Assembly (NCBI GenBank): GCA_051047955.1
Contig: JBPGPT010000013.1
Coordinates: 186,001 to 250,000, forward strand
Length of the DNA stretch: 64,000 bases
Direction of reading: 5' to 3'
Origin: Cystobasidiomycetes sp. EMM_F5
Taxonomy: Eukaryota
Of the stretch, positions 55,197-57,564 are shown piece after piece. Position 1 is the first letter of the stretch, and the number at the start of each line of letters is the position of its first letter. A program made the position numbers and the translations under genes. The notes below the pieces were generated by a model. It worked only from the letters and a program-made list of their open reading frames with translations. It was not told where the DNA came from and did no database searches.

Positions 55197-57564
55197 TTAG
55201 GCAAGGTAAGTCGAAGCTGTAAATGAAATGGCTCATTGTGTCAGTACACATTCGTGGAATCATGGAGTCATGTACTGACCCGACACATTGCCTCCGCGAC
55301 CGGTCCAGTTGGTATGTACATCCTGACCGGCTTTGCTTCCTGCAAACTGTGGCAAGAGTCTGTAGGTGTGTGCACCAAAGTAGTCACGCTGAGCCTGGAG
55401 CAGAGAAGCGGGCAGGCGTTCTGTGCGGTAACCATCAAAGAACGATAGCGCCGTTGAAAAGGCCGGGGTAGGGATGCCCCAGAGTGCGGATTGTGCGACG
55501 ATGCGTCTCCATCCTTCCTGAGCCTGGTGGATGGCCTTGTTGAAGAAGCCATCAAACAAGAGGTTTTCAAGTTTCTGATCCTTCTTGAAGGCTGCGGTGA
55601 TATCGCCAAGGAAGACGGAACGGATGATGCAACCACCGCGCCACATCAGAGCAATGCCGGCGTAGTTGAGATCCCAGTTGTACTGGTTGGCCGCTTCGCG
55701 CATGAGCATGAAGCCCTGCGAGTACGAGATGATCTTGGAGGCGTAAAGCGCCTGCTCTAGGTCGTCGATGAATTGTTGCTTGTCACCCTTGAAGGCCTCA
55801 ATGGTAGGACCGCCAATGACCTTGGAGGCGCGGGTTCGCTCCTCCTTGAGAGAGGAGAGGCATCGAGCGAAAACAGCCTCGCCAATCAGAGTGACGGGCA
55901 TACCTTGTTACACCAATCTCATCAGCCAAATTCTTTCACAAACGCCCCATTCTCAACTTACCCAGATCTAAAGCATTGATGGCAGTCCACTTGCCGGTAC
56001 CCTTCTGACCGGCCGAGTCGAGAATCTTGGTGACGAGCGGTACTCCATCCTCGTCATTGTACTTGAGAATATCTCTTGTAATCTCAATGAGGAACGAGTC
56101 GAGAACGCCCTTGTTCCACTTTGTAAAGACGTCTGCAATCTCGGCCTCCTTCATGCCTAGACCCTGCTTCATGATCTGGTACGCTTCGCAGATGAGCTGC
56201 ATGTCGCCGTATTCGATACCGTTGTGGACCATCTTGACGTAGTGACCGGCACCCGCTTGGCCGACCCAGTCGCAGCATGCTATACACGCAGATCACGTCA
56301 GATGTAGCATCGCATACTGTACCAGTCTGACTCACGCTGGCCGTCAGTCTGAGCGGCAGTCTTCTGGAATATCTCCTTGATGTGTGGCCACGCAGCTGGC
56401 GAACCACCGGGCACTGCAAAGCAAGCAGGGCTCCATACATCAGTATGCATAGACGTGCGCTCCGCTAGAGGTGTCTAGACATACTGAGAGATGGTCCGTA
56501 GCGAGCACCTTCCTCCCCACCGGATACACCGGATCCTACAAAGAGGAGACCCTTTGCTTCCAACTCGTCCATGCGGCGGTTGGAGTCGGGATAGTGGCCT
56601 GACGAAGACAGTGTGTCAGACGTAATGAAGTAGAACTCCAGCAGGCGTATACGCACTGTTTCCTGTGTGTCGTTTGTGTGGAAGTAGTATGCACGTCGTG
56701 CGTCAGCTATGGGCCATTTTCCGCAGACTCGCGGTGTAGCAGAATCTACGAACCTCTGTAGACAGGCGCAGGAAGAGAGATGGTCAGATTTCCGATTCCC
56801 TCGCAGTACTGTGGGACGGCCTCACCCGTCAATGATGATATCGCCCTTTTCGAGGTGGGGAACGAGCTGCTCGATAAAGTCGTCTACGGCTTTACCAGCT
56901 TTAACGAGGAGGACAATCTTTCGGGGAGTCTTTAGCTTTGAGCATAGCTCCTCAATCGAGTGTGCCCCGATAATGTTTGTTCCCTTTGCCTCGTTTTCGA
57001 GAAAGTGGTCTACTTTGGAGACTGTCCGGTTGTAGGCGACGACGGTAAAGCCCTTGTCGTTCTGACGCGGGTAAAGAGTAGGCTGTCAGCTCGGTGCTGA
57101 TTCAAAGGGCCGCCAGACTAACCATGTTGAGGATCAGGTTCTGACCCATGACTGCGGGGCAATAAACGGCGGTATCAGCATGTCAACTGCGAGCAACCAA
57201 CCCGTTGCGCTGTGATGACTGCGACGGAGCTCGACGCTATCGCCCATTTCTGCCCTTTGAATGGCCGTCGAGCCCTCGGTCATCACAGGAACGAGCAAAT
57301 TGAATGCGACCCACCCGCGAGGCCAATGAGCTGAAATAAGAAACCAGAACACACTCAGCCTGACATGCTCCGGCCACCCTCGTAGCTCTGCCCACTTACG
57401 CCGATATCACCACTGGTGACCCAACCATTCGCGGGCGGGACAGGATACGAGGATTTGATTTGATTTGATTTGACGGCAGAGGGGTATCGCGAAAAGGTCA
57501 GTCTGCGTGCTTTCTCTATCCTCCACTGGATGACCACCCACACTGCTCCCGACTTGCTGGCCAT
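55197..57564 (-). CDS. GND1: 6-phosphogluconate dehydrogenase, decarboxylating
   Basis: [63 protein letters not shown]. Confidence 0.97.

Follow-up and report, generated by a model that had tools for sequence, protein, structure and literature searches.

The 6-phosphogluconate dehydrogenase (6PGD) gene of this Cystobasidiomycetes genome raises the question of whether a conserved substrate-binding loop can depend on an exon of two nucleotides and, if it does, whether such an exon is a constant part of the message or a regulatory switch. The gene, which we term gnd1, lies on the minus strand at positions 55197 to 57564 of the window, the 64,000-nucleotide stretch analyzed here. The gene model, its homologues and matches to 6PGD entries in PDB identify it as an NADP-dependent 6PGD. 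The model comprises 12 coding exons (23, 13, 16, 29, 236, 2, 6, 114, 78, 318, 624 and 20 nt) and predicts a product of 492 amino acids. Among the 120 homologues listed, the closest full-length proteins that carry names are from Pucciniomycotina, and the product is 87.4% identical to a protein from a Cyphobasidiales MAG and 86.6% identical to that of Cystobasidium minutum. It has the features of the long-form NADP-dependent enzyme: the PF03446 and PF00393 domains, as assigned through its homologues, a length of about 490 residues, the DGGNS loop, and Asn102. When the largest exon was used as a query against the 18.3-Mb genome of the same organism, the single match was the gnd1 locus itself.

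The arrangement in question spans exons 5 to 8, all given here on the minus strand. Exon 5 (56826..57061) ends in GAC GG, an Asp codon and two leading bases of a Gly codon. Intron 5 (56756..56825, 70 nt) follows, with donor GTGAGG, branch motif CTGAC (branch A at 56784), acceptor CTACAG, a pyrimidine-rich stretch of 32 nt from branch point to AG, and a posterior of 0.82 in an intron model trained on this genome. Exon 6 (56754..56755) is the dinucleotide AG, which supplies the third base of the first Gly codon and the first base of the second. It is separated by intron 6 (56663..56753, 91 nt; GTTCGT, GCTGAC with branch A at 56703, ACACAG; posterior 0.10) from exon 7 (56657..56662), which in the gene model is GAAACA and encodes the remainder of the second Gly, an Asn, and the first base of a Ser codon. 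Intron 7 (56599..56656, 58 nt; GTGCGT, CTGAC with branch A at 56616, CGTCAG; posterior 0.77) leads to exon 8 (56485..56598), whose opening GC CAC completes the Ser codon and adds His. A sequence-only reading had proposed these exons and introns, and every one of its coordinates matches the minus-strand sequence, as does its statement that each intron has its own donor, branch site and acceptor.

In each of the three introns the terminal AG is the only AG past the branch motif. Donor-to-branch spacing is 38 nt in intron 5 and 37 nt in intron 7, compared to a genome median of 37. Both tiny exons are thus flanked on either side by canonical introns, of which intron 6 is the weak one. Its donor has the lowest score among the 11 introns of gnd1 in the genome-trained model, and the T at its +3 position is shared by 18 of 1,100 called donors. 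Its branch-to-AG stretch is 44 nt long and free of AG; a stretch of at least 44 nt occurs in 2.5% of called introns.

We enumerated splice paths from exon 5 to exon 8, with no more than three introns per path and none shorter than 30 nt. There were 6,583 paths using GT or GC donors and AG acceptors, and 674 of these were open and in frame. A single one, through the 2-nt and 6-nt exons, reads D-G-G-N-S-H, which makes exon 6 the sole canonical route to the motif. The motif, as DGGNS[HY], is present in 117 of the 120 listed homologues, and the remaining three start downstream of it. The exon 5 peptide aligns with residues 22-99 of the sheep enzyme (PDB 1pgn), and therefore the Asn encoded by exon 7 corresponds to Asn102, a residue that contacts the substrate, 6PG (PMC1919378). 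The earlier claim that the motif cannot be built without the 2-nt exon is upheld by both the enumeration and the homologues. So is the frameshift predicted on its omission, which leads to a stop at 56346, in exon 9, after 168 codons. Skipping of exon 7 keeps the frame and removes two residues, and retention of intron 5, 6 or 7 brings a stop after 106, 108 or 121 codons, respectively, that of intron 6 lying at 56748. Across 860 kb of this genome read on both strands (1.72 Mb), the full cassette, a series of branch motif, AG-free spacer, YAG, NG and GTNNG, was counted 7 times, genuine microexons among them, which puts its chance occurrence per 163 nt at no more than about 7e-4. These features of the sequence argue that the 2-nt exon is very probably real, and that the 2-nt and 6-nt exons together are likely to be genuine coding exons that are always included.

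Exons this small do not appear to be peculiar to gnd1. We searched for introns using an unsupervised model with a Markov background, trained on 860 kb (796 kb plus the window), or about 5% of the assembly; a first model, which strayed onto coding motifs, was dropped in its favor. The introns it calls are predictions, false positives included, with median values of 59 nt for length, 37 nt from donor to branch point, and 22 nt from branch point to AG. Of neighboring called introns, 21 of 372 pairs at the strict threshold and 32 of 557 at the loose one lie no more than 15 nt apart, and the density per nucleotide of such short exons resembles that of longer ones; in five of the 557 pairs the gap is 2-3 nt. 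The opposite-strand control for such pairs is distorted by the complementarity of donor and branch motifs, and we gave it no weight. In gnd1 the branch-to-AG distances before the two tiny exons are 32 and 44 nt, against the median of 22. A longer distance before exons of 6 nt or less was seen at the loosest threshold (p = 0.006; 13 exons, gnd1 included) and was not significant at stricter thresholds (6 exons, p = 0.17-0.18).

The same contig carries a second example, FBA1, which encodes a class II aldolase (G000 C35:63646-64538, or L088:3646-4538, plus strand). Its predicted exons measure 24, 2, 58, 12, 6 and 47 nt, the 2-nt exon being GC at C35:63739-63740. With the tiny exons included, the predicted N-terminus aligns without gaps to Escherichia coli FbaA; without the 2-nt exon, a stop follows after 13 codons. 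The 2-nt exon gives the peptide VPAGV, which stands at the same offset in 10 of 120 homologues, basidiomycete yeasts included. By sequence alone, 843 of 12,364 paths through this N-terminus are in frame, and thus the FBA1 case rests on splice signals and homology. Some annotated FBA1 records from Rhodotorula and Tremellales have insertions or deletions at the tiny-exon junctions, which suggests that the microexons may be conserved in relatives and often mis-annotated there. On these predictions, tiny exons are part of the ordinary grammar of this genome.

How introns 5 to 7 might be removed can be considered in terms of their signals. The splice sites around the 2-nt exon presumably cannot be occupied simultaneously, from which we infer sequential removal by intron definition; stepwise, intron-defined removal is the standard inference for ultra-short exons (PMC4674806). 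Three short GT-AG introns would each be recognized across the intron and excised in turn, and the tiny exons would never be recognized as exons. We lean slightly toward an order in which introns 5 and 7 are removed first and intron 6 last. This order is favored because of the strong signals of introns 5 and 7 and because intron 6 has a weak donor, a distant branch point, and a predicted hairpin. Removal of introns 5 and 7 would attach AG to the end of exon 5 and GAAACA to the start of exon 8, so that intron 6 would then lie between two long exons with both microexons already fused. The AG of exon 6 would also place the weak donor of intron 6 in an AG|GT context; across called introns, compensation of weak donors by an exonic AG is a small, marginal effect (15/76 vs 121/1,024, p = 0.048). 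Occasional skipping or retention probably yields premature stops as noise. How the removal of introns that lie 1-6 nt apart is ordered was called an open question in 2015 (PMC4674806), and gnd1, a compact housekeeping locus with a predicted hairpin at a donor, would be a convenient minigene for that question.

The alternative that fares best accepts the exon and makes it regulated. The predicted hairpin, of 13 bp, occupies 56720..56752 on the minus strand, where positions +2 to +15 of intron 6 pair with +22 to +34 through three G-U pairs and one bulge, covering the weak donor. It would block U1, and condition-dependent retention of intron 6 (stop at 56748) or skipping of exon 6 (stop at 56346) would then tune the supply of 6PGD and NADPH. 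For the first 40 nt of the intron the predicted folding energy is -15.9 kcal/mol (z = -3.68, equalled by 1 of 200 shuffled sequences), compared to -6.8 kcal/mol for the predicted U1 duplex at this donor and -8.3 kcal/mol for the opposite strand, and in context the donor positions +3 to +6 are predicted to be 72-94% paired at 37 C. Stability of this order was matched by 37 of 6,000 random 40-mers, and any 40-mer as stable was found in 4 of 359 introns. Both failure products contain early stops, and stem-loops that hide a donor are known to control MAPT exon 10 and SMN2 exon 7 (PMC7404189). In those human alternative exons the structure, which has been probed, embeds the donor and competes with U1 (PMC7404189); the predicted gnd1 hairpin would do the same.

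Several observations weigh against regulation. The hairpin was noticed post hoc, upon folding the region, and its rarity depends on the window chosen: none of the 1,100 called donors was as stable at 35 nt and 2 were at 40 nt, but windows of 30 and 60 nt gave 82 and 95, respectively. The opening energy of the donor reaches only the 86th percentile, and the donors of gnd1 introns 1, 3 and 8 are as closed or more so. The three-intron region as a whole folds no better than shuffles (z = -0.5). None of the 9 remaining predicted exons of at most 6 nt has such a hairpin, and a donor hairpin as a general feature of microexons was rejected (p = 0.17, n = 9). The hairpin sequence is single copy in the genome and has no match in Rfam. 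In Cryptococcus neoformans, most intron retention occurs independently of NMD, which speaks against a retention switch, although frameshifting alternative sites are often NMD targets (PMC5006051). The skipping and retention products of gnd1 do place an early stop well upstream of later junctions, as expected for AS-NMD, but this is not diagnostic since it is true of any frame-breaking exon.

The suggestion in the sequence-only reading of an NMD-coupled switch is accordingly not borne out, given that the genome has one match to the gene and that frame-breaking microexons are common. We regard a regulated exon as unlikely. The hairpin is the sole feature that keeps the idea of a switch alive, at a low level of plausibility, and it may be fortuitous, help to order splicing or serve as a regulator. 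It is equally doubtful that it functions by hiding the weak intron 6 donor, 2 nt from the intron 5 acceptor, until intron 5 has been removed. If it did, it would constitute an RNA-structure timer that orders splicing around the pair of 2-nt and 6-nt exons, and a tunable off-switch on the NADPH-producing step in the pentose phosphate pathway, and the 249-nt unit of two-base exon, six-base exon, three introns and hairpin would offer a small system in which to test how spliceosomes deal with splice sites that nearly touch. The predicted hairpin is the one unusual extra of the gnd1 microexon locus, and constitutive inclusion of both exons is the reading we prefer.

A second alternative dispenses with the 2-nt exon. 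Since the AG of exon 6 duplicates the final two bases of intron 6, the same mature mRNA would result from a single 161-nt intron (56825-56665) that ends in AC, with the AG contributed by an 8-nt exon (56664-56657). Path enumeration in which AC acceptors were allowed does yield this identical protein, and the length is feasible, as intron 3 of gnd1 measures 163 nt; the intron model cannot call introns with more than 70 nt from donor to branch point and is therefore uninformative on how rare 160-nt introns are. Such an intron would have to be of the GT-AC type and bypass a CAG two bases downstream, against the rules for 3' splice sites. It would also leave unexplained the complete internal branch-acceptor-donor cassette, and it could not account for the 2-nt exon of FBA1, which is GC. 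We consider the single intron very unlikely. Because its mRNA is identical, neither sequencing of the mature junction nor the RT-PCR that had been proposed could prove exon 6. The point applies to any microexon identical to the final bases of the intron after it, for which mature cDNA is no proof of an exon.

More improbable still is a recursive, zero-length site or recoding, in which the second AG of CAG-AG serves as acceptor, 2 nt are lost, and the frame is rescued through ribosomal frameshifting at a G/A run or through use of a GC donor within intron 7. The AG|GT adjacency, a GGG AAA C run in mRNA that skips exon 6, and an in-frame path through a GC donor at 56654 are all present. However, the GC-donor path reads DGKQCH and loses Asn102, and a zero-length site preserves the motif only if a non-canonical AC acceptor is brought in as well. 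The G/A run is out of phase for a classical -1 shift, and a +1 or -2 shift would be required. Zero-length pairs numbered 0 among introns called at thresholds of 0.3 and 0.5 and 2 at the loosest, a count that is no independent test because the model excluded GAG acceptors by design. Equally remote is a broken gene or an assembly error, to which the single assembly lends some room, since the reading frame runs unbroken for 492 codons, its product is 85-88% identical to the nearest homologues, the locus is the sole match in the genome, and the cassette is complete.

We also looked for transcripts and orthologues that bear on the preferred reading of constitutive microexons. An RNA run compared at 80% likeness gave mostly 6PGD of other organisms. 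One RNA contig of 240 letters matches 56829-57046 with 1 difference, its final 22 letters aside, and none of the joints listed in the run spans the microexons, so that the run speaks neither for nor against them. No intron at the DGGNSH site was found in the 80 metagenome loci examined, out of 520 confirmed, and two pattern scans of prokaryote genome contigs for gnd1 orthologues returned 0 matches and 1 bacterial gnd. Among 120 short 6PGD homologues, 82 read through DGGN, 11 break right after the D, and 27 fall outside the pattern; many of the short proteins end at the motif, as expected of fragments. A partial C. neoformans model that ends I-I-D-G and a Coprinellus model that goes off frame just before the motif (P0125, P0150) hint that other basidiomycetes may have awkward exons at this site. 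Two further 6PGD fragments, P0157 and P0168, follow the motif as far as D-G-G and then diverge. The next residue in P0157 is E, which would be compatible with an intron located where gnd1 has its intron 6.

A fungal exon of 2 nt is not new as such, since fungal exons of 1-2 nt have already been published. In Coprinopsis cinerea, 1,165 genes have internal exons of 15 nt or less, and long-read annotation includes 57 two-nucleotide exons in 50 genes and 13 exons of one nucleotide; among the 89 genes that have an exon of at most 3 nt, omission creates a stop in 63 (PMC12230235). These resemble gnd1 in coming from a basidiomycete and in that omission usually leads to a stop, although the subphylum is different; the name phosphogluconate dehydrogenase is absent from the supplement text searched, and the C. 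cinerea gnd1 may or may not be among the genes concerned (PMC12230235). A parallel in argument is Fusarium CYP621A, in which a 1-nt exon, shown in 24 genes and by SRA reads, completes a Gly codon (PMC12940212). There, as in gnd1, the codon belongs to a conserved motif, the case is made from frame and motif, and gene models had missed the exon; but the Fusarium exon is 1 nt and backed by RNA, whereas gnd1 combines 2 nt with a 6-nt exon and is known from its sequence alone (PMC12940212).

In Arabidopsis, APC11 has a constitutive 1-nt coding exon for which sequential, intron-defined removal was proposed, as here for gnd1 (PMC4674806). The 1-nt exons of APC11 and VPS55 differ in being from plants and experimentally tested; VPS55 has an intron-retained isoform in some lineages, and adjacent microexons of 5 and 12 nt have been validated in rice (PMC4674806, PMC8831610). 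The microexon of Xlr2 in Trichoderma virens is likewise fungal and its inclusion decides which protein is made, but it lies in a transcription factor and is regulated by glucose, a kind of evidence that differs from the genomic case for gnd1 (PMC11121469). Full-text literature searches turned up no paper on the gnd1 exon, and subscription journals or supplements beyond their reach might describe it. What gnd1 adds is a pair of tandem microexons that would code for the loop of a core enzyme in which Asn102 binds the substrate, and that can be overlooked or wrongly placed by gene-prediction and read-alignment programs. At corresponding positions, annotations of relatives are broken in FBA1 records and possibly in gnd1 records.

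Several minor observations concern other parts of gnd1 and its surroundings. The first four exons (window 57564-57123, minus strand) are likewise short, at 23, 13, 16 and 29 nt. The usual N-terminal motif GLIGL[AG]VMG is lacking from 18 of 120 6PGD homologue records, several of which begin MGQN; these nonstandard N-termini are in part consistent with overlooked small exons. In intron 1 (window 57541-57413, minus strand), a candidate branch motif lies 40 nt past the donor and 89 nt short of the acceptor; the spacer up to the acceptor holds four TCAAA repeats and no AG, and a 13-nt exon follows. Intron 11 (window 55279-55240, minus strand) contains a perfect 9-bp inverted repeat that pairs its donor with the branch-point region, which is partly expected because donor and branch motifs are complementary. 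A 3-nt exon, GAG, is predicted at window 2602-2600 (minus strand) between introns of 71 and 63 nt. Finally, 2-nt AC exons are predicted in two neighboring genes, at C35:500801-500800 and 498146-498145 (both minus strand), with flanking intron scores of 0.96/0.96 and 0.69/0.32. Both directly precede a Cys-Cys pair, and the two genes encode small, Cys-rich proteins with hydrophobic N-termini that are possibly secreted.
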